DNA of 64,000 nucleotides from an uncultured bacterium (GTDB lineage: Bacteria; Patescibacteriota; Microgenomatia; Levybacterales; UBA12049): positions 512,809-576,808 of the forward strand of contig CAWGXL010000011.1 in NCBI GenBank assembly GCA_963826535.1, read 5' to 3'. The notes under the pieces are model-generated. The model saw only the letters and a list, made by a program, of their open reading frames with translations. It searched no databases and was not told where the DNA came from. This document shows, in pieces, positions 5,193 through 34,490 of this stretch (position 1 is its first letter; every line of letters begins with the position of its first letter). The position numbers were made by a program, and so were the translations under genes.

Positions 5193-5282
5193 CTATAAGA
5201 CGTACGACCTATGACGTATGACTTAAGACTATAATTTTCTTATATCTTAAAGTCTTATATCATAAGTCTTAAGTCATGGAAT

Positions 5283-13200: not shown

Positions 13201-14717
13201 AAAGATAATGTGGCTAGTTGTTGCCTTGGTTCCAGTTCATTGTCTGTACCAACTGTCATACCAAGATATAGGTTGGGGTTTTCTGAAAAAATAGAAGATA
13301 GCAGTTGATTGTTTCTGCCTATAATTGCGGAAAATTTACCTTCTTGATTTGGTCTGATATCTTGCACTTCCTGCCATAGTAATGCAGAACCTGAGGCAGA
13401 TTGGTTATTATATAGAGCGAATCTCAGCGGAGTGACTGAGGTTATTGGATTATTCTTTTCGTCTGATATTATTCCCTGAAATCTGATAGTTTTTGGAGGA
13501 GGTATAGAAGCACTTGCAAATACAGGTTTTTGTTTACTTAAATCCGGGTAAAACGAACCATATAAAGCAGACCCAAAAAGGGTTGTAAAAATGATAAGAA
13601 TACCTACATGCAAGTAAGTTGTTATAGGATATGAATGATATATTTTGTACCATTTTGGTCTTGTATGTTTAAGGTGATGAAATATTTTTTTATGTTTTGG
13701 CAATCCATTTATGGATATGCTTAAGGGGGCGTATGTTGATTTTGGAATATTTTGAATATCATGTTTTTTGATATTTTTTGATATATTAAATATAGATAAA
13801 AGGGGAATAGTTTTTTTATTTTCATCAATTCCTGCGTGAATGTCTACCTGAAATGGCTTAAAAACGTTTCCTCCACTTAATAACCAGATAAAATGTTCAG
13901 CTTTAGATATTAGTTTTGTAATAGGCAAGGTGAGGAGAAAGTCTAATATTGTTAAATATCCTAGAGATTTTTCTATATTTTCATTTTCGTTTATTTTTTG
14001 GATATTTTGGCCTTGTATTTCTTTGAAAATACTTAGATTAGTTTTTATTTTATGTCTTGTAGTTTTTTCTGTTTGAAGATTTGGTATTTGGCTTATTTTG
14101 ACTGTTTTTTTTCCTAGCCATGAAAGGTATTTGCGTATGGAGGATAATTTACGGTTTATTGAAGTAGGAGATAAGTGGACTACTAATAACAGCCTGTTTT
14201 TATATTCATTGATGACGAATTGATCTATGTTGTTTATTATTTCTGTGTTCTGGCTAGCAATAGGCTTAGATGGTGTAACTTTTTCGAACCAAGAAAGAAA
14301 TTGTTTTATATCCATAAGGTAGTTTTTCGTAGTTAACTTTGACAGATTATCACTTAATAGATATAGCCTGAATTCGTTAAGCATAAGCCGGTCAATTGGG
14401 AGTTCTTTAGTGTCAATTTCCTGGTCGAATGGGTTGTTAATTATTACTTTATTAAATTTTAAGAAATAGAAGAAGCTTCTAAGTGAAGATAAATAGCGTT
14501 CAATTGAGCTTGTGGATGCCTTATCTTTCAGCAAAGACATTTTATAAAGTTTAATTGTCTCAATGCTTATCTTTTTTGGAATGAAGGCGGAATTAGAGTA
14601 TTCTTCGCTCCATCTTATAAATCTTCTGGCGTCAGAGATATAATTTTTAACTGTAAATTTTGACGGTTTATTTTTTTTGGATAGTAAATGTATTTTGAAT
14701 TGTTCTAAAATATTCAT
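10260..14717 (-). CDS. giant membrane/surface protein (1485 aa): two tandem phage-integrase-N-terminal SAM-like (core-binding-like) domains, TM segment, large Thr/Ser/Asn/Gly-rich extracellular repeat region
   Basis: N-terminal ~200 aa contain two repeats resembling the tyrosine-recombinase core-binding domain (KNYISDARRFIRW...IERYLSSLRSFFYFL; TKNYLMDIKQFLSWF...INRKLSSIRKYLSWL). Hydrophobic helix at about aa 360-385 (YPITTYLHVGILIIFTTLFGSALYG). No C-terminal catalytic integrase domain. Plus-strand ORFs inside are antisense artefacts. Confidence 0.75.
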   Translation of the reverse strand: MNILEQFKIHLLSKKNKPSKFTVKNYISDARRFIRWSEEYSNSAFIPKKISIETIKLYKMSLLKDKASTSSIERYLSSLRSFFYFLKFNKVIINNPFDQEIDTKELPIDRLMLNEFRLYLLSDNLSKLTTKNYLMDIKQFLSWFEKVTPSKPIASQNTEIINNIDQFVINEYKNRLLLVVHLSPTSINRKLSSIRKYLSWLGKKTVKISQIPNLQTEKTTRHKIKTNLSIFKEIQGQNIQKINENENIEKSLGYLTILDFLLTLPITKLISKAEHFIWLLSGGNVFKPFQVDIHAGIDENKKTIPLLSIFNISKNIKKHDIQNIPKSTYAPLSISINGLPKHKKIFHHLKHTRPKWYKIYHSYPITTYLHVGILIIFTTLFGSALYGSFYPDLSKQKPVFASASIPPPKTIRFQGIISDEKNNPITSVTPLRFALYNNQSASGSALLWQEVQDIRPNQEGKFSAIIGRNNQLLSSIFSENPNLYLGMTVGTDNELEPRQQLATLSLSNNSEKLQGLIPITKNGAGTNNVVLALDSAGNLTIGGKANPIFQASGGKFTISGKTLVLNSTAGSDGNIEISPNGIGVIDLQKPLQNTTNNNNITSAQGAVEIDDLFAVLATSSGQSAFTINQNSTGPIISASASGTAKFTLENNGTGIFAGNLVINGNNLTSANTSFDLLNTNTINLNIAGSASSISIGGPSGATKINNTLIANGGITISADRSLIISGNVASNLIPFTSGTYDLGSATKHWNNGYIDNIYTSPTATVSGFWQRNTTGDIFTSSSSGSPSFTIAQNGNIGIADNKPENTLKIAGSLCVKNTTGPCAGNTSGTIYAANTIVQNADVAENYVSADSLEPGDVVMPEENNNNPSVIKTVKAYQSQTIGIVSTRPGITLNSDALTDSAHPYIIPIALSGRVPVKVSSENGIIQPGDFLTSSSLPGVAMKASKSGTVIGKALESYTNPYPNQTGKIIVFINLSFFDPSTSTGYTEKYNLEDNLGTSSSLIQALTKNIITNIQVGFIQAEKTATDSLQVTSDNITIGGQTLQEYIAAIIQESIDQFIKEELLSIKLNLIADSQELKANKLLSPLASTSASPTPLPLTPNPVASTSGQLASDNNVSASLSAAYITNVTNIFNASGSASENASNSAEQGAGLYPASLIASSPANFNSPTATTSALQNTSITNHQPVPIISGLPIIENVTPPAQPDNLELLQLINNNQQLTNDYANLSSLSGQLAYTPSLKSDRAQFSKGMMVLGPSTLSDVAIAGNLNVGGNLILANNTINTLGSDLELQPLRQGNLSIMGNLVAIDTNGNLKVSGNATFAKDVAVKGKLTASLIAPIPNQDLILELNNGTMEQSNNQQSKLIIQNSSGSGILAVNQVGDIIASGSGIFARVAANGFNIIRGAQADTSLVQTIASSSAGTAIITAYETERTIISPYVKTESLVYLSAASDTQGLSPYIARQTGESFTIAIPYTINKDIKINWWIIN

Positions 14718-17040: not shown

Positions 17041-17084
17041 CCAGACTTAGAATTGCCTCGAATTCCAAGGTATTCGTTCCTTTC

Positions 17085-17140
17085 TTCCCCCCACCCCTGT
17101 CAAGCAGGCGTGCTCCTTGGTCCGCCTCCCCATATAATAA
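17085..17140. repeat. degenerate copy of GC-rich MITE-like element
   Basis: CCCCACCCCTGTCAAGCAGGCGTGCTCCTTGGTCCGCCTCCCC parallels the 9781 and 19621 elements. Confidence 0.4.
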
Positions 17141-17726: not shown

Positions 17727-18884
17727 TTATCTATCTGTTTTTAGGCGGTATCTGACGCGGAGAAAAATAGTTATGGCTATAGCCAATGCCAGGGTAATAA
17801 CGATAATCAGTTGTAATGGTAGTGCTAAGAATACAATTGATTGGTTAAAAATAGGTCCTTTTTCGGAAAGAGCAAGGTTGAGAGTCGCTGTATAGGGACC
17901 AAGCAGAAAATTTTCATTCCAGAAAATTTTCTGCACTGAGAACTTACCTGCCTCGCCGGCAGGCAGGGAACTTTGAACTGAGGAAAAGGATGAATTTGAA
18001 CGTGTTTGATTGTTTCCCAGGTTGACTAGTTTCGTTGAAGCCTCGTCGGTGAGAGAGCGAGTGCTGGAGGAGAGAATGTTGGCAGGCGAGATATCCAGCC
18101 TGGCAATGGTTTGGCCAAAAATATTTTTGATAAAAATTATTCCTTTGGGGGTAATAAAGTGTGGTCCGGTGTTTTTAATTCTTACCGTGAATTCAACCGG
18201 GCCGGATTGGAGAAAGTTGGGAGCAGAAAATTCTTCGATTGCAGCTTGAGGCTGGTTTTTGGATCTAATAGATAGCAATACATTGGCTGCAATTCCCGCA
18301 TTTATGGTTGAGAAATTTTGATCTTGTGTATTAGCTTCAGGGGCAGGACCTACTTCTTCAGGCTGAGAGGGGGTTTGCGGGACTGAACCCGCCTCCGCCA
18401 AAGGCTTCGGCGATGCAAGAAATATTAGAGAAAAATAATAATCAGAAATTTTTTCGTTTTTGGGGATAGTGAAATGGAGTTCAAGATTTTTCTTCTGTTT
18501 TGGACCTAGCTCAAAATGGGTTGTGACGATTCCATTGTCTGTGAGGCTAATCTTACTAAAGATATTTTTGTAGGAATCGGGTGTTTGGTCGTTGAAATAT
18601 TCAATTTGTCCGGATTCGCCATATGGACGGAAAGGTTTGAAGAGTACTTGGATATTAATAGGTTCAGTTCCTTGGTTTTGTAGAGTTAAAGGTGTTTTAG
18701 ATTCTGCTGGTGGATTTAGATGGATTTGAAGTAGTGAGGGGGAAACGGAGAGAGAGATTCCGTCTGCGTTTACAGTACTAAAGTTGAAAGTTAAAAGAGC
18801 AAAGTTCAAAGTTGCAGTGCAAAGTGCAAAGTTTAAACAAAAATAAATAATTTTTAATTTTGAATTGTAGTTTTGAGTTTTCAT
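17727..18884 (-). CDS. cell-surface protein with N-terminal signal peptide and C-terminal TM anchor
   Basis: N-terminal hydrophobic leader encoded by AAAGTTC-type heptamer repeats. C-terminal LALPLQLIIVITLALAIAITIFLRVRYR anchor. Confidence 0.55.
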   Translation of the reverse strand: MKTQNYNSKLKIIYFCLNFALCTATLNFALLTFNFSTVNADGISLSVSPSLLQIHLNPPAESKTPLTLQNQGTEPINIQVLFKPFRPYGESGQIEYFNDQTPDSYKNIFSKISLTDNGIVTTHFELGPKQKKNLELHFTIPKNEKISDYYFSLIFLASPKPLAEAGSVPQTPSQPEEVGPAPEANTQDQNFSTINAGIAANVLLSIRSKNQPQAAIEEFSAPNFLQSGPVEFTVRIKNTGPHFITPKGIIFIKNIFGQTIARLDISPANILSSSTRSLTDEASTKLVNLGNNQTRSNSSFSSVQSSLPAGEAGKFSVQKIFWNENFLLGPYTATLNLALSEKGPIFNQSIVFLALPLQLIIVITLALAIAITIFLRVRYRLKTDR

Positions 18885-19620: not shown

Positions 19621-19830
19621 TTGAAATCTCAAATTTATATGGCCGGGGTCCTTTCTCCCTCCCACCCCTGTCTCGCTTCGCTCGCAGGCGGGCTCCTTCC
19701 TTCGGTCGTCCGCCCCCAGTCTCCCACAAGTGGACTATCTTCTTAGAAGGGTCGCCACGTCCTCCTTCTCCGCCAGCTGGCGGATCGCTGCGGGCGCTCG
19801 ATGGGTTCCCCAACGCCCGCCACCCCTGAC
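19621..19830. repeat. composite GC-rich element upstream of leuS (MITE-like module + CCCACAAG-GGAC hairpin module + CTGCGGGCGCTCGATGGG module)
   Basis: Shares long blocks with 9781-9900 and 24784-24900. Internal variant of the TCCCCACAAGGGGACTACCTTCTTCGAAGGGTCG element at 19722-19765. Confidence 0.55.
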
Positions 19831-19936
19831 GCCTTTTTTTAAGAGTAATATTATACCTAACTTGTTTAAGAAGTGTAAATGTAACGGATTTACAACGGGC
19901 TTTTTTCTTTTTAAGCTGTATGCTATACTGCTGAAG

Positions 19937-22691
19937 ATGAGGAAAAATGAGGCTAAATTCAGTGAAAAAAGTTTGGAGAAATATGACCCCTCAAGCATTG
20001 AACCGTATTGGCAGGCTAAGTGGGAGAGCGCTGGAGCTTATCAGACTGACCTTGAGAGTGCTAAAAACCCTTTTTATAACTTGATGATGTTTCCGTATCC
20101 GTCGGCTGAAGGCTTGCACATGGGCAGCGTGTTTACTTTCAGTGGTGTGGATATATATGGAAGGTTTAAGAGGATGCAGGGATATGATGTGTTTGAACCA
20201 ATTGGGCTGGATGGGTTTGGGATTCACTCGGAGAACCATGCGATTAAAACCGGAATGCATCCTATAGAACATGCTAAGAGAACTGAGGAGAATTTTTACA
20301 GGCAGCTTAGATTGATTGGGAATGGGTTTGATTGGAAGCATAAAGTTGAGACTTATGATCCTCATTATTATAAGTGGACGCAGTGGTTATTTGTTGAACT
20401 TTTTAAAGCTGGATTGTCCTATAGAAAAAAGTCTCCGGTTAATTTTTGTCCTTCATGTAAGACGGTATTGGCTGATGAACAGGTTATTGACGGAAAATGT
20501 GAAAGGTGCGGATCAATTGTTGAGAAAAGAGAGCTTGAGCAGTGGTTTTTTAGAATTACTAAATATGCAGAGAGGCTGCTTAATAATATTGTTAAATTGA
20601 ATTGGACTGAGAAGGTGAAGATCGCACAGAAGAATTGGATAGGAAGATCTGAAGGCGTTCGGATTAAGTTTGCTCTAAAAGTTTCCGGTCAAAAAGACGG
20701 GAAGCATTTTGTTGATGTTTTCACCACACGTCCCGATACGCTTTTTGGGGCAACGTTTCTTGTTATTTCTCCTGAGCTGGCAAAGTCCTGGTTGTCTGTT
20801 GGCTGGAAAGCTCGATCTGAATTAGTTGATTATATAGAGACGGCAATGGGATCTGACCCACGATTAAGAGAAGCAGCCGATCGGGAAAAAACCGGTGTTT
20901 CTACAGGTGTTATAGCAGTTAATCCAGTTACTAATGAGGAAATTCCGGTATGGGTGGCGGATTATGTGCTTGGTGGGTATGGAACAGGGGCGATTATGGC
21001 AGTACCGGCACATGATCAGCGGGATTTTGAATTTGCTCAGAAGTATAAATTAAAGATTAGTACTGTCATCCTGAACAAAAGTGAAGGATCTAAAGATTCT
21101 TCGGCTTTGCCTCAGAATGACAAAAAAGTAGCGTACACGGGCTCTGGGGTTTTGGTAAATTCAGGGGAGTGGGATGGGTTAGAAGTGCCGAAAGATATAA
21201 AAAAAGTTTTAGATTGGTTGGAAAATAAAGGGTTTGGGGAGAGAGAGGTGAATTACCATTTGCGGGATTGGCTGATTTCTCGCCAACGTTACTGGGGGCC
21301 GCCGATTCCGATGATTTATTGTGAGGCTTGTGCGAAGAAGGGGAAGAGTTGGTTTAGTCTGAAACCGAAGACCTCACCCCAACCCTCTTCTAAAAGGGGA
21401 GGGAGAAATGTGAGTGAAAATAATGATTGGGAAAGTGCGGGGTGGTATCCGGTTGAGGAAATGGAATTGCCGGTGAAATTGCCGTATATTGAGGATTTTA
21501 AGCCTATGGGTACGGGAAAATCGCCACTTGCCAATTACCCGAAGTTTTATGAGACGGTGTGTCCGGGGTGCGGGGGCAAGGCTAGGAGAGAGACAGATGT
21601 ATCCGATACTTTTTTGGATAGTGCTTGGTACTTTTTCCGTTACACGTCGACCGAGTTTGATGACCGTGCTTTCGATAAGCAGAGAGCAAAAAAATGGCTG
21701 CCTGTGAATATGTATATTGGCGGAGCAGAGCATTCGGTATTGCATTTGTTGTACGCACGCTTCATATGGAAAGTTCTTCTTGATCTTGGACATATTGGGT
21801 TTTCCGCCCAAGGCGGACCAGCCTCTGGGCTGGGAGGAACCGTTCGCTAGGTTTTATGCGCATGGGCTTTTGATCAAAGATGGTGCAAAGATGAGCAAAA
21901 GCCGGGGAAATGTGATAAATCCTGATGATTATATCCGAAAATTCGGCGCGGATGCGCTTCGTGCGTATTTGCATTTTTTGGGACCTTTTAATGAGGATGG
22001 AGATTTCAGGGATACCGGTATTGAGGGAATGCATAGGTTTTTGAAAAGGGTCTGGACTCTTTTCAAAAAAGTTCAAAGTTCAAAGTTCCCCACAAGGGGA
22101 CTACCTTCTTCGAAGGGTCGCAAAGTTCAAAGTTCAGAAGAAAATCTGAGGATGATGCATAGGACGATTGCGGGGGTGACTGAGGAACTTAAGAATTTGC
22201 GATATAATACGGCAATTGCGAAGCTTATGAGTTGGTATAACTTTTTGGCCAAGCAGGAATCTGTGAGTAGAGAAGAGATGGAAATATATTTGAAGCTTTT
22301 GGCACCGTTCGCGCCACACATAACTGAGGAATTGTGGCAGGCACTAAACTACCCAGAACGAGGCGCAGAACTACGCGGAAAAGATTGGTCAATTCATGCA
22401 AGTAAATGGCCGAAATTTGATCCTAAGTATATTAAAGACGTTGTTGTGAAGATTCCGGTACAGGTGAATGGGAAGTTGCGGGAGACAATAGAAGTTCAAA
22501 GTTCCCTCCTCGGTGGGCAGGCAAAGTTAAAAGTTCCCCACAAGGGGACTACCTTCTTCGAAGGGTCGCAAAGTGAAATAGAAAGGATGGCGAAAGAATG
22601 TGATAACGTCAGAAAATATCTTGAGGGGAAAAAGATTTTGAGAGTGATATATGTGCCTGGGAAGGTGATTAACTTTGTGGTAGGAAGTTAG
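19937..22691 (+). CDS. leuS: leucyl-tRNA synthetase, apparent +1 frameshift near 21795-21825 and two in-frame mini-element insertions
   Basis: N-terminus ...IEPYWQAKWE...NLMMFPYPSAEGLHMGS; KMSKS motif (GAKMSKSRGNV) in the second frame. Frame A ends at 21850 (...KVLLDLGHIGFS...). Frame B (21717..22691) continues ...EEPFARFYAHGLLIKDG. Confidence 0.8.
22068..22136. repeat. mini-element (CAAAGTT)n-TCCCCACAAGGGGACTACCTTCTTCGAAGGGTCG-(CAAAGTT)n inserted in-frame in leuS
   Basis: Two hairpins (CCCC-ACAA-GGGG; CCTTC-TTC-GAAGG). Translated as SSKFPTRGLPSSKGRKVQSSE. Nearly identical copy at 52122-52190. Confidence 0.7.
22491..22575. repeat. second copy of the same mini-element in leuS, inserted in a different reading phase
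   Basis: ...CAAAGTTAAAAGTTCCCCACAAGGGGACTACCTTCTTCGAAGGGTCGCAAAGTG translated as KLKVPHKGTTFFEGSQSE. Confidence 0.7.
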
Positions 22692-23486: not shown

Positions 23487-24782
23487 ATGTTAAGTTTTAG
23501 GATTTTATTGATTATTGTTTTTCTTCTTATTTTTCTAGGTTTAAGATTTTGGAACTTTTATAAAGACTTACCGGAATATTATCATGGGCAGAAGATTTCT
23601 TTGATCGCTGAGATCGCAGACGAGCCGGAAATCGTTTTTGGGAGACAGAATTTTAATATAAGAGATGGATATGGGACCCGTATCAGAGTTGTCAGCGCTT
23701 CTTCGCCGCTTTTAAGTTACGGTGATAGAGTTTCTATTGATGGGTTTTTCACGAAGAAACTTTATAAAGGTAAAAATTATCTAGTCTTATATTTCCCAAA
23801 GATCCAAACTCTAGGATTAGATGATAATATTTTAACTAAATGGGCTATTTGGACTCGTAATAAAGCGCAAAATGACTATGAAAGGCATCTTCCGCCTGTG
23901 TCCTCCAGCTTGCTTTTAGGTATACTTTTCGGAGGGAAACATGGAATGCCGGATGTGTTTTCGGAACATCTGCGAGTTGCGGGAGTAATGCATGTAATTG
24001 CAGCGTCGGGGATGAATGTAACTTTTGTTGCTGGAGCTTTAATAGGTGTGTTGGGTTCAATATTCAACAGACAGTTTGCTATAGTTATAGCTGGGTTTGG
24101 TATTGTTTTTTATATGTTTTTAGCAGGATTTGAAGCATCGATTGTGCGTGCCGGGATCATGGCTCTTCTGGCTTTTGGGGCGAGTCTTTTGGGAAAGCAG
24201 TATTTGGGAATGTATTCACTGTTAGTTGCTTTTTATTTGATGTTAATTTACAGTCCTGGTTTGTTGTTTGATGTTGGTTTTCAGTTGTCTTTTTTGTCAA
24301 CGCTTGGGATAGTGATTTTCAGACCCCACTTCGTCCCGCTGAGCGGGACTTCGCGGGGCAGGCCCCACGCCACTGAAAATGCAAAGGGGAGTTCGCTTAG
24401 TAATATCCCCGGTATGACAATTTTGTCTGAGGATATTGGTACGACTATAGCAGCTCAGATTGCTGCGTTGCCGGTTTTGATGTCTGTTTTTGGGTCGGTT
24501 GGGATTTTGTCTATATTGGTAAATGCCCTGGTGCTTTGGACAATTCCAATTCTTATGGCTTTCGGGGCTTTGTCTTTGGTTTTAGGTTTAGTTGTTGAAC
24601 CTATTGGACTGGTGTTTTTGTATTTGTGCCTGCCTTTCCTTTTATTTTTTGAGCAGGTTGTTTCATTTTTTGGGGGTTTCGGCTGGGTTTGGAAAGTGGA
24701 GGAGTTTCCTTGGCAGTTGAGTATTGGGTATTATTTAGTGCTTTTGGCGATAGTATTGTATTTACGAAAAAAGAGGCTATGA
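23487..24782 (+). CDS. comEC: ComEC/Rec2 membrane channel, N-terminal and competence domains only
   Basis: Polytopic membrane protein with VAGVMHVIAASGMNVTFVAG (ComEC competence-domain motif). Carries an in-frame GC-rich mini-element at 24322-24395. Confidence 0.7.
   Translation: MLSFRILLIIVFLLIFLGLRFWNFYKDLPEYYHGQKISLIAEIADEPEIVFGRQNFNIRDGYGTRIRVVSASSPLLSYGDRVSIDGFFTKKLYKGKNYLVLYFPKIQTLGLDDNILTKWAIWTRNKAQNDYERHLPPVSSSLLLGILFGGKHGMPDVFSEHLRVAGVMHVIAASGMNVTFVAGALIGVLGSIFNRQFAIVIAGFGIVFYMFLAGFEASIVRAGIMALLAFGASLLGKQYLGMYSLLVAFYLMLIYSPGLLFDVGFQLSFLSTLGIVIFRPHFVPLSGTSRGRPHATENAKGSSLSNIPGMTILSEDIGTTIAAQIAALPVLMSVFGSVGILSILVNALVLWTIPILMAFGALSLVLGLVVEPIGLVFLYLCLPFLLFFEQVVSFFGGFGWVWKVEEFPWQLSIGYYLVLLAIVLYLRKKRL
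24322..24395. repeat. GC-rich two-hairpin mini-element (GTCCCGC-TGA-GCGGGAC; GGGGC-AG-GCCCC) inserted in-frame in comEC
   Basis: Perfect 7-bp stem. Translated as RPHFVPLSGTSRGRPHATENAKG. Related copies at 32226-32265 (minus orientation) and 44068-44090. Confidence 0.65.
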
Positions 24783-24783
24783 G

Positions 24784-24900
24784 GTAGTGTTTTTGTCCCA
24801 ATGGGGTCCTGTCTCGCCTTTTCCCAGTCCGACGTCCTCGCTCACTACGTTCACTGCGGGCGCTCGACTGGGAGCCCTAGGCTCGCCACCCCTAACTAAT
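24784..24900. repeat. GC-rich MITE-like element between the comEC membrane part and the MBL-domain gene
   Basis: Shares GGGGTCCTGTCTCGCC and CTGCGGGCGCTCGACTGGG...CGCCACCCCTAAC blocks with 19621-19830. Confidence 0.55.
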
Positions 24901-25842: not shown

Positions 25843-27384
25843 ATGATCAGAAAATCCCTCTTATTGTTTTTATCTATTAGTATATTTCTATTTTTCTTTA
25901 ATATTTTCTCTTTTAATAAAACTCAAGCGCAAACTTGTGCCCATACGCCTACAAGTACTAACAGTGTTACAAGCATAGTCGCATTCACTGTGGCCGGAGA
26001 TTATAAAGTATGGAGCAGGATATTGGCTCCTGATTCAGCAAGCAATTCATTTTATCTTCAAATTGATAATAATTGCGCTATTAATATAGGTGACCAAACA
26101 ACAATCCCTGCCAATAGTTTTACCTGGGTTGATTATCAGGATGGGGTAGTGACGAATTCAGTTAGTGTTAACCTTACGGCAGGAGATCACACAGTCAAGA
26201 TAACTGAACGTGAAGGAGGAGTGGGTATTGATAAATTGCTCTTTATCACGGATATGCAATGTGTTCCAACGGGGACAGGAGATAATTGTCCTTCCGTCAC
26301 TGATACGCCATCTCCAACACTTTCAAACATTCCGCCAACAATTCCACCTTCCAACATAATAACTATCGGAGAAACGAACATTTTGAGTAGGAACGACAGC
26401 GGCAATGGTAATCAGCTGTTCGCTACAAAAACGACCCTCTCACAGACGGCCACACTTCAGAGTCTCTCTTTCTATGTCACGACAGCGACCGGCAATCTCC
26501 GGCTCGGCATATTTGACGCGACCGGTCCCGGTGGAGCGCCGGGTGCCAGGAAAGCCGAAACGGCTAGTTTGACTCCCACGACGGGCTGGAACACGGCGGG
26601 CGTCACTCCAGTTTCCCTGCCGGCTGGGAACTACTGGCTGGCCTATCTGCCGAGCAATAACACTCTTGGCTACAGAGCGGAATCTACCGGAGGAGATTCC
26701 AAGCAGATGTCACATGCCTACGGCCCAATGCCCACCACTTACTCAACTGCTCCAGGCTCTACACACTGGCGTTGGTCTTTATACGCTACACTCAATACTT
26801 CAGCCTCCGAACCTACACCGACTAAAACTCCAGCTCCTACCTCGACACCTTTACCAACAGCAACTCCTTCGCCACTTCCAACCCCAACACCCACTTCAAC
26901 ACCTACGCCGATACCTCTGCCTACAGCAACACCAACTAAGACTCCTACGCCTACCCCAACAGGCAATGGTTTGCAAGCAGTCTATTACAACAATACAAAT
27001 TTCACCGGCATCTCCATAGTGCGCATTGATCCAAGCATTAATTTCAATTGGGGCACGGGCTCTCCTCATTCATCAATTGCTGGCGATACCTTTAGCACCA
27101 TTTGGACAGGTTTTGTAGTTCCCCGTAATAGCCAAACTTATACTTTTTATGCAAAAACAGACGATGGTGTGCGTCTATGGGTAAATGGTCAACAACTGAT
27201 AAATAGTTGGATCAATCAGAGCGCGACTGAGCGGAGCGGGTCAATAACTCTTATTGCAGGACGAAAATATACAATCAGGATGGAATATTATGAGAATAAT
27301 GGAAGCGCTCTTGCCCAGCTTCGCTGGAGCAGCTCGGCTCAGATCAAAGAGATTATTCCTCAGAGTAGATTATATAGTTTTTAA
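25843..27384 (+). CDS. secreted protein: signal peptide, N-terminal beta-sandwich domain, Pro/Thr-rich linker, C-terminal PA14 domain
   Basis: PT linker PTPTKTPAPTSTPLPTATPSPLPTPTPTSTPTP. C-terminal GLQAVYYNNTNFTG...WTGFVVP...YTFYAKTDDGVRLWVNGQQLI...RMEYYENNGSALAQLRWSS is a typical PA14 domain. Confidence 0.7.
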   Translation: MIRKSLLLFLSISIFLFFFNIFSFNKTQAQTCAHTPTSTNSVTSIVAFTVAGDYKVWSRILAPDSASNSFYLQIDNNCAINIGDQTTIPANSFTWVDYQDGVVTNSVSVNLTAGDHTVKITEREGGVGIDKLLFITDMQCVPTGTGDNCPSVTDTPSPTLSNIPPTIPPSNIITIGETNILSRNDSGNGNQLFATKTTLSQTATLQSLSFYVTTATGNLRLGIFDATGPGGAPGARKAETASLTPTTGWNTAGVTPVSLPAGNYWLAYLPSNNTLGYRAESTGGDSKQMSHAYGPMPTTYSTAPGSTHWRWSLYATLNTSASEPTPTKTPAPTSTPLPTATPSPLPTPTPTSTPTPIPLPTATPTKTPTPTPTGNGLQAVYYNNTNFTGISIVRIDPSINFNWGTGSPHSSIAGDTFSTIWTGFVVPRNSQTYTFYAKTDDGVRLWVNGQQLINSWINQSATERSGSITLIAGRKYTIRMEYYENNGSALAQLRWSSSAQIKEIIPQSRLYSF

Positions 27385-27390
27385 AACATT

Positions 27391-29001
27391 TTGAAAAAAT
27401 TCTTTATAGACTACATACATGCACTAATACCTCCATACAAGAGGGCTGATCTGCCATTGGTCACTTTAACAATAGTATTAACTGTAGCTATGTTGTTTGC
27501 AATAAATAACATAAGGTATGAAGATACCAAATCTCAAAGCTATGCACTAAGTACTTATACTATTAATGTTGAAGCGGAGAACGGGAATTTTGCAGGAAAT
27601 GTGAGTATGGTTAATGATTCGAATGCCTCCGGAGGGAGGTATGTTGTATTTGGTAGCGGGAATGTTGCGAGTGTTGCTGCCTTTCCCGGCGCAGAAGGAT
27701 TCGGGGCAATTTCGGTTGGCGGGCGTGGAGGTCGTGTGATCCAGGTGACGAACTTGGATGATTCCGGGCCTGGCAGCTTTCGCGATGCTGTTACGCAGAG
27801 CGGACCGCGTACGGTCGTTTTCAGGGTTGGGGGTACTATCACTTTGGCATCGGATATCAATATTATAGAACCATACCTTACAATTGCCGGACAAACCACT
27901 CCAGGGGGCGGCATCCAGTTCCGTGGCAAAGGGCTTAGGGTCCAGCCTCCGGCCCACGATATCACTATCCGTCACATACGGATCCGCCGCGGATGGATAA
28001 CTAACCCGGGCGTTAACGATGTAGGACTCTCGGTGGAGTCTGGATCTAATGCGGGCAATTCCTCATCCTTGGCGGTCTACAACGTTATTGTTGACCATTC
28101 ATCTCTTGGATGGCAGCAAGACGACAACGCTGGCTGGGGGAAGATACGAAATATTACCTTCCAGTGGAATTTTATCAATGAGGGAAACAATCCGGATTCA
28201 CCATTCAATAATGGTATAAGCGGGAAAGGCCTCTTATTAGGGGCGCCTCCGGGTCAGGGCAACGATATGGGGACTATCTCGATCCACCACAACTTTCTCG
28301 CAAGCAACCATCAGCGTAATCCATCGATTGGTGGCCATGGACCGACCGAGGTCGTGAACAACGTGATCTATAATTGGGGAGCCTTCGGCACTCAGATTCA
28401 GAACCGCGGAACGGATGGGACCAAGATGAATATAATCGGTAATTATTACAAGGCGGGACCTAATACCGGTTTGTCTCGTTATGAGGTGCTCATAAGTAGC
28501 GCTAGCGCGGGGGTTCTGGATCAACTTCCAGAGATGATATATATAAGTGACAACCTTAGCCCGCATCGGACAAGCAGCGCCCAACCTGAGTGGGCTCTAG
28601 TTGGCTATTGCGGGGCAGGAGGCCCAACTTACTGTACGATACCTGCTTCTACTTCGTTCCAGCGGAGTACTCCCTGGCCATCATCCGATTATCCCATCAG
28701 CGTTTCTAGCGTTCAGGAAAACATTACGGATGTCCTGAATAATGCCGGTGCCACTTTGCCTGTTCGAGACGAGGTAGATGCTCGGCTGGTAGCTGAATAC
28801 AATTCTGGTACAGGAACCATCGGAGGTGATAACAATTGGCCGATTCTTCAAGCCGGCACTCCGCCGGCGGACAGCGATAGTGATGGCATGTCAGATACTT
28901 GGGAAACAGCTAATGGACTCAATCCGAATGATGCAAGTGATGGACCTAAGATTGTTAGTAATGGTTACTCTAATCTGGAAAATTATATTAACAGTTTGTA
29001 A
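27391..29001 (+). CDS. membrane-anchored pectate-lyase-like (right-handed beta-helix) protein with C-terminal DxDxDG / NGYSNLENYINSL tail
   Basis: AEGFGAISVGGRGGRVIQVTNLDDSGPGSFRDAV...RTVVFRVGGTITL...TIAGQTTPGGGI resembles the PL1-type pectate lyase N-terminal signature. C-terminal DSDSDGMSDTWETANGLNPNDASDGP. Confidence 0.55.
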   Translation: MKKFFIDYIHALIPPYKRADLPLVTLTIVLTVAMLFAINNIRYEDTKSQSYALSTYTINVEAENGNFAGNVSMVNDSNASGGRYVVFGSGNVASVAAFPGAEGFGAISVGGRGGRVIQVTNLDDSGPGSFRDAVTQSGPRTVVFRVGGTITLASDINIIEPYLTIAGQTTPGGGIQFRGKGLRVQPPAHDITIRHIRIRRGWITNPGVNDVGLSVESGSNAGNSSSLAVYNVIVDHSSLGWQQDDNAGWGKIRNITFQWNFINEGNNPDSPFNNGISGKGLLLGAPPGQGNDMGTISIHHNFLASNHQRNPSIGGHGPTEVVNNVIYNWGAFGTQIQNRGTDGTKMNIIGNYYKAGPNTGLSRYEVLISSASAGVLDQLPEMIYISDNLSPHRTSSAQPEWALVGYCGAGGPTYCTIPASTSFQRSTPWPSSDYPISVSSVQENITDVLNNAGATLPVRDEVDARLVAEYNSGTGTIGGDNNWPILQAGTPPADSDSDGMSDTWETANGLNPNDASDGPKIVSNGYSNLENYINSL

Positions 29002-29072
29002 TGACGCACACATCCCGCCCCTAGTTGACAACACTCCGCTTTTTCTAATAGGCTAAAGAAGTAGATTCTAAA

Positions 29073-31352
29073 ATGTTTAATAACAAACTAAAAAGAATAA
29101 AAAGCATATTTTCCCCGCGTGGCGCGGTTATTGATAAAGGAGCTATTTACGTAGTTGTCATCTTAACAATACTCATTTTCGGAGGATTTATCTTTGTAGG
29201 AGGAACTCTTCCCACCAAATTACCAAAGGCCAGCTCAGAATTGGTTGCGCTTGTTGTCTCACCTCCAGAACCTACAACTGCCAGTCTGCAGCTACATACC
29301 TTTTACGGAGTGACAAGCACACCACGTCCGCAGCAGCCAACTCTTGCTCCCGAGTCAGACAGCGATCCTGTGCTTATAGATTGCCGCCGAGACATAACAG
29401 GAAGTAGCGAGCCTCAGATGATATGGGGATTTACCTTTGATGCTGCGTCTTCAAGCTTGAGAGCATTTTATACCAATAAAAATGCGCTTGTTCTCGGTTC
29501 AGGAGCTGTGACCCAGATGGGAAGTCACCCTGCGTCTCAAGTTGCAAATCCCTCCATTGGTAACGCAGGTGCAAAAGACAGCGATAACTTACCCCTCTAT
29601 CCTGCAATATTCATAACAGATATTACAAATCTACCTCAAAACATATCAGGAGACTCACAAGGGGGAGGACAGGCAAACAAACCCGGCGCGCTCTACGGCA
29701 CATGGAAGGCAAATGGTACAGCTGACCCTGAAGCAAATGGACAGGAGCGGGGACCAGGCGCTTCAACCTGGCCGCCTGCCAATGGACCACAGGGGATCCA
29801 TGGAGAAGATTTTACAACTGAGATTGTTTGGACAACAGCGTCAATACAAGCACGTGATCCTAGTACAGGTCAGTTTGTATCCCTTCAGCCCGGACATAAA
29901 TACCGGATTCAAATAGTTCTCCATGACGGAGCAAGCCCAAGTGATGTCGGACAAGCTTGTATGCAGTTTAATATGCCCGGGGACGCACCGCCACCTCAAT
30001 CGCAAGCCAATTCCTGTGACGTTTCTTCCACTAATCCCCTAGCGGTACCTGCATTTCCCTGTGCACAAGGAGGAGGAGCAGAAGCCAAAGGAGGTCGGGG
30101 CGGACGAGCAATAGAAGTCACTAACCTCAACGATTCAGGTACAGGAAGTCTTCGGGCATGCGTGGAAGCTTCCGGCCCTCGTACCTGCGTCTTCCGCGTG
30201 GGAGGGACGATCAATCTTTCGAGTACGCTGGGCATAACGAATTCATTTCTCACCGTCGCAGGACAGACCGCTCCCGGGGGAGGCATTACCCTGAGCGGGA
30301 AGAGTATGGGCGAAAATGTGTTTTTATTGAGGGGAGCCAATAATGTTATTGTCCGCTATATACGAGTTCGCAAGGGACAGCATTCATCTTGCGGGGGCTC
30401 TAACCAATGCGGATCAAACGTACGCATGAATAAGGACGCTCACACTGCCATATTCGACCACCTTAGTCTGTCCTGGAATCAGGATGAAGGGATCAACCCG
30501 CACGTCAATACTACGATATCGCACAGCCTCATCTGTTGCGGGTTTAACACGCATCCTACAGGGATACTTTCCGATTCTGGTGCTTCGGGAGTGAATGAAG
30601 ATATTCATCACAATCTTGTAATGAATAACAGCCATCGCAATCCTCTCCTTAGAAACAAGTCGAGCCGTGTTGTCAACAATATCTGGTACAACCAGAGGAG
30701 TTATGTCACCCACGTGAGCGGCGGCATGCAGTTGGACAATATTGGGAACAAGTACAAGAGAGGTCCGCTGACCGGGAACTCAACGTGGCACGAGGTCGGA
30801 GCTTTTTCCGGTTACTCTGGATTATCCGCGCCCGGCATGCCGTCTGTTTACATGAGCGGGAATGTCGGATGGCATCAGCCTAACCCTGCTGGGGATCAGT
30901 GGGCTATGGTTAATCAGATAGGAGGAGAGAATGGTCCGGATACCGGACCCATGCCAACCTCCTGGCGTCGTTCCTCTCCCATGCCCAACACTGCCTACCC
31001 GGTCATTGCTGAACCGGTCGGGAATATTGAAGCGAGCATTCTTCCCATCGTCGGTGCGTCCCGCAGGCTCGACTGCAATGGCAACTGGGTGGCCAACCGG
31101 GATTCGCTGGATACCAGTCTCATCAACCAGTACCAGACCAATACCGGCATCGGTGCTCTGCCGCAAAACGAATCGGGTTATGGGGGATATCCGTCAATCG
31201 CAAACGGCACACCCTGCGCTGACGCCGATCATGACGGTATGCCGGATCAGTGGGAGACAGCCAAAGGATTTAATCCCAACGATCCAAGCGATGGGCCGAC
31301 GATTGCTGCAAACGGTTACTCCAATTTGGAGAATTATATTAACGGGTTGTAA
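29073..31352 (+). CDS. membrane-anchored protein: ~310 aa N-terminal domain shared with 52542..54656, pectate-lyase-like domain, same C-terminal tail
   Basis: N-terminal ~310 aa about 80% identical to the product of 52542..54656. GGRGGRAIEVTNLNDSGTGSLRACV...FRVGGTINL...VAGQTAPGGGI. C-terminal DADHDGMPDQWETAKGFNPNDPSDGPTIAANGYSNLENYINGL. Confidence 0.55.
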   Translation: MFNNKLKRIKSIFSPRGAVIDKGAIYVVVILTILIFGGFIFVGGTLPTKLPKASSELVALVVSPPEPTTASLQLHTFYGVTSTPRPQQPTLAPESDSDPVLIDCRRDITGSSEPQMIWGFTFDAASSSLRAFYTNKNALVLGSGAVTQMGSHPASQVANPSIGNAGAKDSDNLPLYPAIFITDITNLPQNISGDSQGGGQANKPGALYGTWKANGTADPEANGQERGPGASTWPPANGPQGIHGEDFTTEIVWTTASIQARDPSTGQFVSLQPGHKYRIQIVLHDGASPSDVGQACMQFNMPGDAPPPQSQANSCDVSSTNPLAVPAFPCAQGGGAEAKGGRGGRAIEVTNLNDSGTGSLRACVEASGPRTCVFRVGGTINLSSTLGITNSFLTVAGQTAPGGGITLSGKSMGENVFLLRGANNVIVRYIRVRKGQHSSCGGSNQCGSNVRMNKDAHTAIFDHLSLSWNQDEGINPHVNTTISHSLICCGFNTHPTGILSDSGASGVNEDIHHNLVMNNSHRNPLLRNKSSRVVNNIWYNQRSYVTHVSGGMQLDNIGNKYKRGPLTGNSTWHEVGAFSGYSGLSAPGMPSVYMSGNVGWHQPNPAGDQWAMVNQIGGENGPDTGPMPTSWRRSSPMPNTAYPVIAEPVGNIEASILPIVGASRRLDCNGNWVANRDSLDTSLINQYQTNTGIGALPQNESGYGGYPSIANGTPCADADHDGMPDQWETAKGFNPNDPSDGPTIAANGYSNLENYINGL

Positions 31353-31378: not shown

Positions 31379-32722
31379 TTAGTTGGCTAGATGGTTGATG
31401 GGTTTTTCGCTTGGTCCCGATTTAACCCCGATTATATCGGGGGGACTCGGAGTTGGGTTTGGTGTAGATGCGAGATTTTTTGTCGTGGAATTGATTGGGA
31501 TGGTGAAGGTGATTGTGGTTCCTTTGTCGGGGTCGGAAACGAGGGCGATGGTACCGCCGTGGGCTTCAACTATTCCTTTGGAGATATATAATCCAAGTCC
31601 GGTTCCTACAGTTGCATTTGGGCTACGGATTTGTGTGAATTTTGAAAAGAGTAGATGTTGTTTTTCTTTGGGAATTCCGATTCCCGTATCGCTTACACTA
31701 ATAGAAATTTTTTCATTGTCAATCCAAGCTCGTATGGTAATAGTACCTCCGCTTGAAGTGAATTTAAGACTGTTAGTGAGTAGATTGTTTATTACCTTGC
31801 GTATCTGATAGCTTTCGAAGCTGGCTTCGGGCACAAGCGGGTCAATTTGGCATACTAAATGGATAGATTTATTTTCAGCAAGATGTTTGTATGCTTCTAC
31901 AGCTTCTGCAATGACTTTTTTAACATCTCCGTTTGTTTTCTGTATTGTAAAAAGTCCGTTGTCTAGCTTAGCAGCATCTAGAATTGTAGATACTTCATCG
32001 AGCATTTTGCCTGTTTGAACGCTGATGATCCCTATCAGGCGCTTTTTTTCATCATCTGTAAGATTTGTTCCTCCTGTTAACATTTCGGAACTGGCTTTGA
32101 TGGAGGTGAGGGGACTGCGCAATTCGTGGACGATGATGCTAGTGAAATCTTCTTTCATTTTTGATAGTGATTTTTCCAAAGTAACATCATGGATTAAAAA
32201 TGAGGCTCCAGTAACTTTGACTTCCTGTTCGTTCCGCTCAGCGGGACTTCGCGGGGCGAGTCCCAAGACACTGGAAACATCGTTGGGAGCCAGGATGGGA
32301 TTTATTGTTACATTAAAGGATTTGTTATCATGGAGTATATTTTTTTCTTCAATTTTTTGGTTTAATTTTATGGCTTTTTCAATTCTTTCACCGAAATTAT
32401 AGGTATTGGGTAGGCTACTTAATACATCTATTATTGACGGGTTGTCTTTTTGCAGTCCCAGGAAATCTTTGGCGGTTTTGTTTATCAAAGTTAGACGGCT
32501 GTTAACATCTACCAAAAAGAGACCGTCATCAAGGTTCCCAACTAATGATGTCAAATCGTGTTTTTCTCTAACCAGTGCTTCCTGCAACTTTTTTTCATTT
32601 TCGTTGAGTGCCTTTTTAAGTTTTTCTTCTTTAATAGAGTAAAAAATGGCAAGTATGCCAAAAAATAATGTTGCAGAAATAGCAATGATTATGGGCAGGT
32701 CCATGATAAGTTCAAAGTTCAA
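31379..32722 (-). CDS. sensor histidine kinase (TM, PAS-like, HisKA, HATPase_c)
   Basis: H-box IIVHELRSPLTSI. ATP-lid GTGLGLYISKGIVEAHGG. Contains an in-frame GC-rich mini-element at 32226-32265. Confidence 0.8.
   Translation of the reverse strand: MNFELIMDLPIIIAISATLFFGILAIFYSIKEEKLKKALNENEKKLQEALVREKHDLTSLVGNLDDGLFLVDVNSRLTLINKTAKDFLGLQKDNPSIIDVLSSLPNTYNFGERIEKAIKLNQKIEEKNILHDNKSFNVTINPILAPNDVSSVLGLAPRSPAERNEQEVKVTGASFLIHDVTLEKSLSKMKEDFTSIIVHELRSPLTSIKASSEMLTGGTNLTDDEKKRLIGIISVQTGKMLDEVSTILDAAKLDNGLFTIQKTNGDVKKVIAEAVEAYKHLAENKSIHLVCQIDPLVPEASFESYQIRKVINNLLTNSLKFTSSGGTITIRAWIDNEKISISVSDTGIGIPKEKQHLLFSKFTQIRSPNATVGTGLGLYISKGIVEAHGGTIALVSDPDKGTTITFTIPINSTTKNLASTPNPTPSPPDIIGVKSGPSEKPINHLAN
32226..32265. 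repeat. GC-rich hairpin mini-element (CCGCTCAGCGGGACTTCGCGGGGC family) in-frame in the histidine kinase gene
   Basis: Reverse orientation of the comEC copy. Translated as LGLAPRSPAERN. Confidence 0.6.
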
Positions 32723-32765
32723 AGTTAAAAGTTCTAAGTGAAAAGTTATAAAGTATTTTTAGCTT

Positions 32766-33005
32766 CTAATCTTTGTTGATATTTGATAGTTTTTCTTGAT
32801 TGGCAGTAGGAGTTGGTTGTTCTGTGGAAGGGAGGCTCTCTTCTTCGGGGGGCAAGGGTGCAGGTATTCCGCTCAGTGGGACTGACGGGGTTTCGTCAGC
32901 CCCGATTAAATCGGGGTCAGGTGGAGTTGCCGGAGGGGTATCGCTCAGCGGGGCTGGAGGTGGGGTGGTGGTTGATTTTTGGGATTCCTCGTCGGTCGGT
33001 TGCAT
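32766..33005 (-). CDS. 79-aa Pro/Thr-rich ORF between receiver and kinase genes, built largely from GC-rich repeat modules
   Basis: GC-rich 200 nt containing CCGCTCAGTGGGACTGACGGGG and a CCCCGATTAAATCGGGG hairpin. Starts 2 nt after the receiver-gene stop. Confidence 0.3.
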   Translation of the reverse strand: MQPTDEESQKSTTTPPPAPLSDTPPATPPDPDLIGADETPSVPLSGIPAPLPPEEESLPSTEQPTPTANQEKLSNINKD

Positions 33006-33581: not shown

Positions 33582-34490
33582 ATGACCTTTCTTGAAAAAT
33601 ATCAGCTCCTGAAAAAATCTGTTCCTGTTCCGGCAGTGACGATTCCAAACTCGGTTAATTGTGATTTTGTGGATTATTGCTATTGGTGTAAAAATTGTTA
33701 TTATTGCTTTAATGGACACAAACTTGTAGATGGAATTTATACAAATGCGGGATGGGGAAATAAGCTTGTAGATTGTGATTTAGTTACGGAGTCGGAAAAG
33801 TGTTACAAATGTATTGATAGCAACGCGTGTAATAGTTGCACATACCTAATAGAATGTAATAGCTGCACAGATTGTCATTTTTCTGCCTTTTTAAACTCAT
33901 GCATTGATTGTTTCGGTTGTATTGCTCTCACGCATAAAAAATATTGTATTTTGAACATTCAGTACGGCAAGGATGAATATTTTAAAAAGGTTGAAAAAAT
34001 GAAAAAAGAGAAGCCCGAAAAGATTCTTGCCCAAATGCTTGAACTAAAACAACAGATTCCGCATCCGGCAAGCCAGCAATTCAATAGCGTGAATTGTCCA
34101 TATGGTAATTTTATATATAATTCAAAGAACAGTTACTGGTGTTTTAATAATTACACTATTGAAAATTCCGGTTATAATTTCGTGAGTAATAATGTAAAGA
34201 ATTGTTGGGATGTCTGGTACTCCGGCGGAGACTCGACTAAAAAAACTTTCTCTGAACAATGTTATGAATATATATATTCTGCAAATTGCTACGAATGCGC
34301 TTTTATATACAATTGTCATTCTTGCACGAATAGTTACTACAGTGAAAATCTTATAAACTGCTCCGATTGTTTCGGGTGCGTAGGTCTAAAAAATAAGAAG
34401 TATTGCATTTTAAATAATCAGCTATCCAAAGAACAATATGGAAAGGCTGTTAGTGGGATTAAGAAAGAGCTAGGGTGGAGAGAATTATGA
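33582..34490 (+). CDS. Cys-rich internal-repeat protein (302 aa), paralog of 62434..63342
   Basis: Repeated CxxC / Cx2Cx2C spacing (NCYYCFN, KCYKCIDSNACNSCTYLIECNSCTDCHF, DCFGCIAL..KKYCILN). Two ~150 aa half-repeats. Confidence 0.55.
   Translation: MTFLEKYQLLKKSVPVPAVTIPNSVNCDFVDYCYWCKNCYYCFNGHKLVDGIYTNAGWGNKLVDCDLVTESEKCYKCIDSNACNSCTYLIECNSCTDCHFSAFLNSCIDCFGCIALTHKKYCILNIQYGKDEYFKKVEKMKKEKPEKILAQMLELKQQIPHPASQQFNSVNCPYGNFIYNSKNSYWCFNNYTIENSGYNFVSNNVKNCWDVWYSGGDSTKKTFSEQCYEYIYSANCYECAFIYNCHSCTNSYYSENLINCSDCFGCVGLKNKKYCILNNQLSKEQYGKAVSGIKKELGWREL

Follow-up and report, generated by a model that had tools for sequence, protein, structure and literature searches.

A 39-nucleotide GC-rich hairpin unit carried in frame by unrelated genes of Microgenomates bacteria is probably a translated selfish DNA cassette

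Introduction

The AT-rich mitochondrial genomes of fungi contain short hairpins of high GC content, known as GC clusters and double-hairpin elements, which spread there, sometimes enter coding sequence (as in yeast var1), nest within one another, and form families with shared ends. The byp elements of Magnusiomyces mitochondria are skipped by the ribosome, and the reading frame need not be preserved. In bacteria, the Rickettsia palindromic elements (RPEs; Ogata et al. [quoted passage not shown] Here, we analyze a 39-nt GC-rich hairpin unit that lies in frame within the genes for the competence protein ComEC and a sensor histidine kinase in a stretch of 64,000 nucleotides, referred to below as the window, from an uncultured bacterium of the Patescibacteriota (Microgenomatia, Levybacterales; contig CAWGXL010000011.1, positions 512,809 to 576,808). 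Comparison of the window with related genomes and metagenome contigs suggests that the unit is probably a very small, non-autonomous, frame-neutral, translated selfish DNA cassette of Microgenomates/Levybacteria-type bacteria of the candidate phyla radiation (CPR). We found no description of such an element in the literature on hairpin, MITE, or palindromic elements of CPR bacteria, Patescibacteria, or Levybacteria.

Results

The window contains two solid copies of the unit, both on the + strand. One is read in sense within the Competence-domain open reading frame (ORF) of ComEC, and the other lies antisense within a histidine kinase gene on the − strand. The two share 50 nt at 84% identity (24330 to 24379 and 32228 to 32277, repeat family D13), and a 24-nt core is matched twice in the window versus 0.00 times expected. 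A covariance model (R1), built from 18 copies and used to score the window and related loci, detected nothing else significant in the window. A first-pass annotation of this DNA had proposed a GC-rich hairpin mini-element in frame in both genes and in these orientations, with the translations FVPLSGTSRGRPH in ComEC and APRSPAERN in the kinase. Two significant copies, open frames, and absence from orthologs bear out the element, and the orientations and translations are correct.

In ComEC, the hairpin unit occupies codons 280 to 292 (translation PHFVPLSGTSRGR) and is joined to a second unit of 33 nt, which folds weakly and matches the 33-nt "family 1" cassette described below in its CCCCAC...TCG ends and its length. 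The composite of 39 + 33 nt (24324 to 24395; 72 nt) covers exactly the 24 codons 280 to 303, in agreement with the annotated interval of 24322 to 24395. The kinase copy is likewise followed by a second unit, and the two second units are alike at ∼19 of 33 positions in a hand count. The 5′ outer stem of the kinase copy has decayed, and its inner stem contains one G.T pair (GTTCCGC/GCGGGAC). The perfect 7-bp stem claimed in the annotation is therefore found in ComEC but not in the kinase, and the full unit is a 39-nt nested hairpin rather than this stem alone. The 39 + 33-nt bipartite layout of both copies, together with the adjacency of ComEC and kinase genes in a relative (L024), points to local copying of the composite, by which the two window copies probably arose.

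Fainter matches fared unevenly. The small Pro-rich ORF at 32766 to 33005, annotated as carrying a variant, contains a 17-nt match that has the T variant of the kinase copy (ORF translation ..SVPLSGIP..) and that we regard, with 0.01 such matches expected, as a true copy. A further match in this ORF, at about position 32941, is weak; the 11-mer core at one mismatch has 7 matches in the window versus 0.21 expected. The supposed partial copy at 44068 to 44090 did not hold up: it amounts to a 13-nt inner hairpin with an E value of about 1, not significant alone, and is a possible remnant of the element.

Both host proteins differ from their orthologs at the element. Between the conserved KP and DDIGTT motifs, the loop of ComEC is 35 residues long versus 11 to 12 in the shortest orthologs (alignment A2), an excess about the size of the 24-codon composite, and the nearest relative (L023, 61% identity) has no element at the corresponding site. 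The AlphaFold model of ComEC has a predicted local distance difference test score (pLDDT) of 84 and a predicted template modeling score of 0.81; the only segment below a pLDDT of 50, residues 285 to 307, is a coil between two helices that coincides with the insert. In the kinase, 16 residues at the insert position are absent from 13/13 orthologs (54 to 69% identity; alignment A4). The ortholog comparison thus came out as the first-pass annotation had anticipated, as did folding of the region and a motif search beyond the window, which are presented next.

The repeat unit consists of a GC-rich nested hairpin of 35 nt (CCCCACTTCGTCCCGCTSAGCGGGACTTCGCGGGG) followed by YAAR. Its consensus, CCCCAC TTC GTCCCGC TSA GCGGGAC TTC GCGGGG plus YAAR (alignment A3), folds into an outer stem of 6 bp, mismatched at one A.C position (G.U on the other strand), and an inner stem of 7 bp capped by a 3-nt loop, the two stems being separated by a 3x3 internal loop; with its ends inverted (CCCCAC/GCGGGG), the whole unit approaches a single palindrome. 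Stability is high on both strands. Folding free energies as RNA are −20.3 kcal/mol (z −3.7) for the sense strand and −25.6 kcal/mol (z −5.2) for the antisense strand; the corresponding values as DNA are −9.8 and −12.6. The 5′ boundary is sharp, with flank information of ∼0 just before CCCCAC, while conservation fades after YAAR. Across genomes, conservation is as strong at unpaired positions (TTC/TTC internal loop, A.C mismatch, T-S-A loop) as it is in the stems.

The length of 39 nt is a multiple of three, and the consensus, read by eye, has a stop codon in at most one of six frames, where it hinges on the loop base; as a result, the unit neither shifts nor ends a reading frame. Its translation is a stretch of 13 residues rich in Pro, Ser, Arg, and Gly. 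Copies are read in all three sense frames (PHFVPLSGTSRG, PTSSRSAGLRG, and PLRPAQRDFAG) and in antisense (APRSPAERDEVG and others), indicating that no common peptide is under selection. Selection on the loop base, where TGA would be a stop in one sense frame, was considered and rejected: 0/5 copies in that frame carry TGA, which is not significant in a rough binomial test (P ∼ 0.16).

Searches for a known RNA or DNA feature were negative. Rfam models found two tRNAs only in the whole window at the gathering threshold, with no match to the element, and only a chance snoRNA match in the element region at E ≤ 1, with no ribozyme or intron match. A terminator and promoter scan of positions 23400 to 25000 returned 0 terminator-like sites and nothing at the element, and its flanks have no T-run tail. 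The 26-nt core had no match in viral contigs and hence gave no evidence for a phage vector. An origin as a fragment of rRNA or another structured RNA was rejected, as matches are in protein genes only and are too few for a conserved RNA, and a CRISPR origin was rejected on the single copy per locus and the lack of arrays.

Beyond the window, the unit recurs in unrelated genes. A collection with one genome per bacterial species was scanned with the 3′ 21 nt of the unit, leaving out its 5′ 14 nt. The scan gave seven loci in AT-rich CPR genomes, and all seven restored the same extra 5′ 14 nt to give the full 35-nt consensus. Metagenome contigs contributed 9 further distinct sites (12 loci returned, some being duplicates of one site). 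In total, 18 sites are known: 2 in the window and 16 almost identical copies in AT-rich contigs of Microgenomates/Levybacteria type, with one copy per related locus under the covariance model. These collection scans took exact matches only, and diverged copies are under-sampled.

Seventeen of the 18 copies are intragenic and one is intergenic, and the reading frame is open in 17/17 intragenic copies. Hosts in other genomes are valyl-tRNA synthetase (ValRS), thioredoxin reductase (TrxR), HMG-CoA reductase, RarA, RadA, DprA, RecJ, an ATP-dependent DNA ligase, ribosomal protein L4, two glycosyltransferases, a TIGR00375-family protein, endonuclease III, and NusG; the glycosyltransferase-type hosts include a GT4 glycosyltransferase, and a PMT_2 protein is also listed as host. 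Within gene families, the element keeps no fixed position and is absent from most orthologs. One filled site is common to three independent contigs (L003, L017, and L018). Genes for DNA uptake, recombination, or repair account for 7/17 intragenic copies (ComEC, DprA, RadA, RarA, RecJ, endonuclease III, and the ATP-dependent ligase), an enrichment that was noticed post hoc among the element-carrying loci considered (the window, L005, L006, L012, L013, L020, L022, and L009).

The size of the insertion could be read from two hosts with structures. Aligned to Thermus thermophilus ValRS (1GAX), the element-carrying ValRS has an insert of exactly 13 residues (..LGWP[HSVPLSGTSRGKP]E..), and TrxR aligned to 5UTH gives the same exact length. 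These gaps indicate insertion of 39 nt with no duplicated flank. A 7-bp target duplication, suggested by heptamers that flank other copies, was rejected on the same evidence, and an insertion of 39 + 7 nt would in addition shift the frame; the heptamer direct repeats at the other sites are pre-existing tandem tracts. A 3-bp CCC duplication was rejected as well, being present at 2 to 3 sites only.

Orientation is biased. The 18 sites comprise 14 sense copies, 3 antisense copies (kinase, endonuclease III, and NusG), and the intergenic one, and by our own estimate the excess of sense over antisense has a two-sided binomial P of ∼0.013. The top strand of the element is the G-rich strand in 17/20 loci (the window counted once, three duplicate-site loci included), and the skew is near zero in the other three. 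In the window, GC skew is positive across nearly all 64 kb irrespective of gene direction (average of ∼+0.18, mostly +0.1 to +0.3), except at 26 to 30 kb, where it is about zero. The pattern agrees with a G/C strand disparity that has been described across whole chromosomes for related complete UBA1400 Microgenomates genomes (PMC7143001). Strand bias and gene orientation are confounded in all but two cases, the antisense copies in the kinase and NusG, where the element follows the G-rich strand rather than the gene.

More than half of the intact copies are placed exactly where one heptamer of an A-rich tract ends and the next begins (..AAAGTT|unit|CAAAATT..). Tracts of this kind are common: of 50 tandem-repeat arrays in the window, 25 have a period of 7 or 14, versus ∼1.8 per shuffled window (∼14-fold), as do 44 of 122 arrays in related loci. 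Heptamer flanks are absent from the ValRS, TrxR, ligase, and ComEC sites, where the ends of the unit are nevertheless identical. Period-7 arrays have many different unit sequences and sit both in intergenic spacers and in frame within genes such as that for arginyl-tRNA synthetase (examples in Table 1).

The unit belongs to a wider set of GC cassettes of 18 to 39 nt, most of whose lengths (39, 33, 30, and 18) are multiples of three. Variants with the same shell and other inner hairpins measure 32, 30, and 18 nt (Table 1). The 32-nt variant lies in another ligase, which on reading of its sequence by eye also has an intein-like insertion. The 33-nt cassette CCCCACAAGGGGACTACCTTCTTCGAAGGGTCG, the first family of the first-pass annotation, starts with CCCCAC like the 39-nt unit, has a length that is a multiple of three, and is flanked by AAAGTTC heptamers; it occurs in frame twice in the C-terminal part of leucyl-tRNA synthetase (LeuRS) and once in a WecG-type glycosyltransferase ORF.

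Among orthologs of 77 to 91% identity, one loop of HMG-CoA reductase exists in six states, all between similar heptamer flanks: basal sequence, heptamers only, a core of 18 nt, a remnant of 21 nt, this remnant with a GC hairpin nested in it, and the intact 39-nt unit. The loop is a hot spot with cassette turnover. The 21-nt remnant, TCC ATT CGG CAA GCT CAG GAC, gives SSIRQAQD, which is kept in several orthologs with a synonymous CGG/CGA difference. Retention at the protein level with a synonymous change argues that remnants of the element are translated rather than removed.

Table 1. Coordinates of the element, its hosts, and neighboring features (window positions unless stated otherwise)
Feature	Positions	Strand	Evidence or remark
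Host gene 1: ComEC Competence-domain ORF, 431 aa	23487..24782	+	Pfam PF03772, E 1.7e-45
Intact 39-nt hairpin unit in ComEC, CCCCAC TTC GTCCCGC TGA GCGGGAC TTC GCGGGG CAGG	24324..24362	+	66.4 bits, E 2.4e-10
Inner stem of ComEC copy, perfect 7 bp with 3-nt loop (GTCCCGC-TGA-GCGGGAC)	24333..24349	+	Sequence and fold
Second 33-nt unit CCCCACGCCACTGAAAATGCAAAGGGGAGTTCG adjoining ComEC hairpin unit; codons 293 to 303, PHATENAKGSS	24363..24395	+	Sequence; common to kinase copy
Host gene 2: PAS/HisKA/HATPase sensor histidine kinase, insert NDVSSVLGLAPRSPAE	31379..32722	−	Pfam matches; alignment A4
Second 39-nt copy TTCCTGTTCGTTCCGCTCAGCGGGACTTCGCGGGGCGAG, antisense to kinase gene	32222..32260	+	52.8 bits, E 7.8e-08
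Second unit after kinase copy, TCCCAAGACACTGGAAACATCGTTGGGAGCCAG	32261..32293	+	Sequence; shared repeat with ComEC
Decayed copy TTCCGCTCAGTGGGACT, antisense within small Pro-rich ORF	32867..32883	+	17 nt, 1 mismatch versus kinase copy, 0.01 expected
Possible further decayed copy TCGCTCAGCGG, Pro-rich ORF	32941..32951	+	1-mismatch match to 11-mer core; weak, not significant alone
Inner-hairpin-only match CCCGCTGAGCGGG, 13 nt, intergenic	44076..44088	.	cmsearch E 0.8 to 1.8; no T-run after
Variant, 32 nt, CCCCACTTCG..CTTCGAGGGGCAAA			
Variant, 30 nt, CCCTCCTTCGCCAAGGCTTCGGCGGGCAGG			
Variant, 30 nt, TCCTACTTCGCCAAGGCTACGAGGGGCAAG			In another organism's kinase at a different site
Variant, 18 nt, CCCTCCTCGGTGGGCAGG, between heptamer repeats in LeuRS	22504..22521		Identical 18-mer in HMG-CoA reductase loop of another organism (L027, 386..403)
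33-nt cassette CCCCACAAGGGGACTACCTTCTTCGAAGGGTCG	22088..22120, 22536..22568, 52136..52168		AAAGTTC heptamer flanks
Variants of 33-nt cassette	19723..19755, 51392..51444		
Period-7 arrays (examples)	5196..5277, 18780..18837, 32708..32747, 34666..34702, 36002..36070, 62377..62421		
Intergenic GC-rich elements of ∼110 nt	9785..9896, 17084..17133, 19639..19837, 24790..24900		
LeuRS, two overlapping ORFs	19730..22691		
31-nt double hairpin TCCGCCCAAGGCGGACCAGCCTCTGGGCTGG in LeuRS	∼21803..21833		
5.5-kb block of GC 0.47 to 0.49	25843..31352		
Paralogous block	52480..54656		
1485-residue ORF with phage-integrase SAM-like models	10260..14717	−	PF02899, PF13495
Paralogous 302-residue ORF pair	33582..34490, 62434..63342		No Pfam match

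Other features of the window are listed with the element in Table 1. The histidine kinase lacks a segment of ∼130 residues that its orthologs have between an N-terminal transmembrane stretch and the PAS region and that is annotated as GAF (PF13185) in many of them; orthologs are ∼570 to 585 aa long versus 441 to 447 aa here. ComEC and the kinase, adjacent in relative L024, are separated here by a 5.5-kb block with almost no GC skew. This block, probably an inserted island, contains two large unknown ORFs as well as the gene for a PA14-domain protein, and a paralogous block lies elsewhere in the window. GC-rich elements of a third kind, intergenic and ∼110 nt long, have common ends (..CCGGGGTC..CCCCTGTCTC.. 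and ..GCCACCCCT) and mosaic interiors; one of them fills the gap between the two ComEC ORFs, Competence and Lactamase_B, where relative L023 has a spacer of only ∼30 nt. A GC-rich double hairpin of 31 nt divides LeuRS into two overlapping ORFs, shifting the frame just upstream of the KMSKS motif: frame A ends ..GFSAQGGPASGLGGTVR* and frame B goes on ..GWEEPFARFYAHGLLIKDGAKMSKSRGN. This could be a genuinely split LeuRS, as exists in Aquifex, a programmed frameshift, or a sequencing error.

Discussion

The unit keeps constant ends at unrelated sites in different genomes, is missing from orthologs, has a frame-neutral size with no target duplication, and shows a strand bias; together, these four findings lead us to favor a non-autonomous selfish cassette as its probable nature. 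Its mobility is deduced from this distribution. Under the favored reading, the unit would be transcribed and translated as a 13-residue stretch that surface or inter-helix loops can accommodate, the short flexible loop being what makes the cassette tolerable. After insertion, copies would decay in place, with those in the kinase and the Pro-rich ORF as decayed examples. How the DNA is inserted is a more tentative part of the model. In our preferred model, in which confidence is low, an enzyme acting in trans and recognizing the folded single strand may be responsible; ends that stay constant despite unrelated flanks, the asymmetric mismatch and the internal loop that are conserved in the hairpin, the missing duplication, and the strand rule speak for it. 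Insertion would then be specific to the G-rich strand and leave no target duplication, by analogy with the movement proposed for hairpins related to REP/RAYT and IS200/IS605 systems (compared below), and would show a preference for A-rich period-7 tracts.

Several observations weigh against a mobile cassette. Pfam scans of ∼40 window ORFs found no transposase, HUH enzyme, reverse transcriptase, or homing endonuclease. No target tetranucleotide is conserved 5′ of the element (∼0 to 0.6 bit per flank position), unlike in IS608-type elements. Copy number is low, with two solid copies and one decayed copy per 64 kb. No pair of filled and empty sites was found at near-identical DNA, and in the pair that comes closest (L004 and L025, at 91% protein identity), the difference is an apparent decayed copy at the same site, not an empty site. 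The near-identity of copies between genomes is partly by construction and is overstated through the exact-match scans. Finally, the orientation bias could instead be caused by selection against the more stable antisense mRNA hairpin. With respect to enzymes, the only related Pfam match in the window is a pair of overlapping phage-integrase N-terminal SAM-like models at residues ∼113 to 206 of a 1485-residue ORF. The window also contains a paralogous pair of 302-residue ORFs ∼29 kb apart, with 74 to 87% DNA identity.

The main rival needs no dedicated enzyme. GC cores would move between sites through their common A-rich period-7 flanks (AAAGTTC/AAAATTC) by homologous recombination, gene conversion, or template switching between tracts, possibly on DNA taken up from relatives. 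The position of more than half of the intact copies at a tract unit boundary (..GTT|unit|CAAA..), the enrichment of period-7 arrays in the window and their frequency in related loci, the missing transposase, and the ComEA, ComEC, and DprA genes of the host organisms all fit this explanation, as does the HMG-CoA reductase loop, where the same flanks hold no core, an 18-nt, 21-nt, nested, or 39-nt core depending on lineage. Exchange through flanks should, however, yield variable boundaries and co-transferred flank sequence, whereas the heptamer-free ValRS, TrxR, ligase, and ComEC sites carry exactly the same ends and a clean size of 13 codons. We consider recombination between heptamer tracts unlikely, albeit the strongest of the alternatives. 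Improbable to a greater degree is that selection keeps the unit as a functional module, either as an RNA or DNA signal (for protein binding, RNase action, ribosome pausing, replication, or uptake) or as a useful peptide. Conservation of unpaired positions as strong as that of the stems, the DNA uptake, recombination, and repair genes among the hosts, and the strong orientation rule could be so explained, but the conservation is inflated by exact-match searching, and a peptide is hard to reconcile with the use of three frames and both strands. Nor does a module account for the lack of a fixed position per gene family, for the absence of the element from most orthologs, or for decayed copies that persist, and there is neither an Rfam match nor a terminator-like tail; the density is far below that of an uptake signal.

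It is also conceivable that the insert never reaches the protein: it could be removed from the mRNA as introns are, or the ribosome could skip it, as in T4 gene 60 and at the mitochondrial byp hairpins. A stable GC-rich hairpin in essential genes of an AT-rich genome superficially resembles byp, and another GC insert of the window, unlike this unit and 31 nt long, does disrupt the reading frame of LeuRS. Against this stand the open frame in every intragenic copy, a unit length that is a multiple of three, decayed copies that are still in frame and conserved at the amino acid level, the absence of a stop after the take-off codon, take-off and landing codons that do not match up, and the lack of any ribozyme or intron match, which together make removal or bypass very improbable. 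For elements that come from metagenome-assembled genomes, an artifact of assembly or adapters would be a concern, as would chance resemblance between stretches of GC-rich, low-complexity coding DNA. Such an origin is effectively refuted by zero matches expected by chance, by the same 35 nt in independent projects and assemblers at codon-compatible positions of conserved genes, by the filled site shared among three independent contigs, and by the existence of decayed copies.

A selfish, translated cassette remains our preferred reading. More speculatively, and with little confidence, we raise the idea that Microgenomates carry a lineage-wide, previously undescribed system of insertions into protein loops, with a mobilization that matches no known transposon class. 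Such a system may combine frame-neutral GC hairpin cassettes of 18 to 39 nt, with a shared CCCNNC...GGG-CARG shell, and A-rich period-7 repeats, with cassettes that continually insert, nest, and turn over within essential proteins' loops. It may land preferentially on one DNA strand and in genes of DNA uptake and recombination (ComEC, DprA, RadA, RecJ, RarA, Nth, and ligase), and may plausibly spread between species on DNA taken up by natural transformation.

If these readings are correct, the unit would be among the smallest selfish elements known to colonize coding sequence, with a 39-nt design (a multiple of three, nearly stop-free, flexible residues) that makes insertion almost harmless. 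Ultra-small CPR genomes, usually described as nearly free of mobile DNA, would be reshaped within essential genes. Such cassettes would account for some lineage-specific loop insertions of CPR proteins and would bear on annotation, alignment, structure prediction, and phylogenetic markers. The conserved asymmetric hairpin and the strand rule would define a substrate for finding the responsible enzyme, and the links to period-7 repeats and to DNA uptake and recombination genes would be leads on DNA movement among uncultured, episymbiotic bacteria.

Among known systems, the GC clusters of fungal mitochondria resemble the unit as GC-rich hairpins that nest in an AT-rich genome and form families with common ends. 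They are organellar, and byp elements are bypassed, whereas here the frame is always kept and remnants look translated. Bypass elements such as byp and gene 60 have matching take-off and landing codons and a stop after take-off, neither of which occurs here. Repetitive extragenic palindromes (REPs), in pairs (REPINs) or alone, with their REP-associated tyrosine transposases (RAYTs; HUH Y1), and elements derived from IS200/IS605 share with the unit imperfect GC-rich palindromes of 20 to 40 nt, the lack of target duplication, and a strand bias, as well as a conserved mismatch or asymmetry in the hairpin that suggests recognition of a folded single strand. REPs differ in being extragenic, high in copy number, often paired, and started by GTAG; the unit here is intragenic in 17/18 cases, low in copy number, and starts with CCCCAC. 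IS608-type insertion requires a fixed 4- to 5-nt target, in contrast to the unconserved 5′ flank here, and neither RAYT nor TnpA was found in the available DNA, which comprised 64 kb of the source genome plus ∼140 kb of related loci (Pfam scans covered the window). With MITEs, the unit has in common that it is a short, apparently non-autonomous repeat with terminal inverted repeats (the 6-bp outer stem with 1 mismatch). MITEs are usually 50 to 500 bp long and AT-rich, with target duplications and terminal inverted repeats that match an insertion sequence (IS), whereas the unit has 39 nt and is GC-rich, its ValRS and TrxR copies are without target duplication, and no cognate IS is known.

The closest functional parallel is with RPEs. 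As they are described in the summary of PMC10969869, these too are dispersed palindromic repeats in frame within unrelated housekeeping genes of a small-genome bacterium; the extra peptide is translated and tolerated in loops, no transposase is known, and copies decay in place. In the same account, RPEs are ∼100 to 150 bp long and specific to Rickettsia, while the unit described here is 39 nt (about a quarter of that length), GC-rich, present in several CPR genera, and often found in period-7 repeats. Set apart by size and phylum rather than by comparison with the sequences of the ten RPE families, the element is not an RPE, but of the systems compared here it works most like one.

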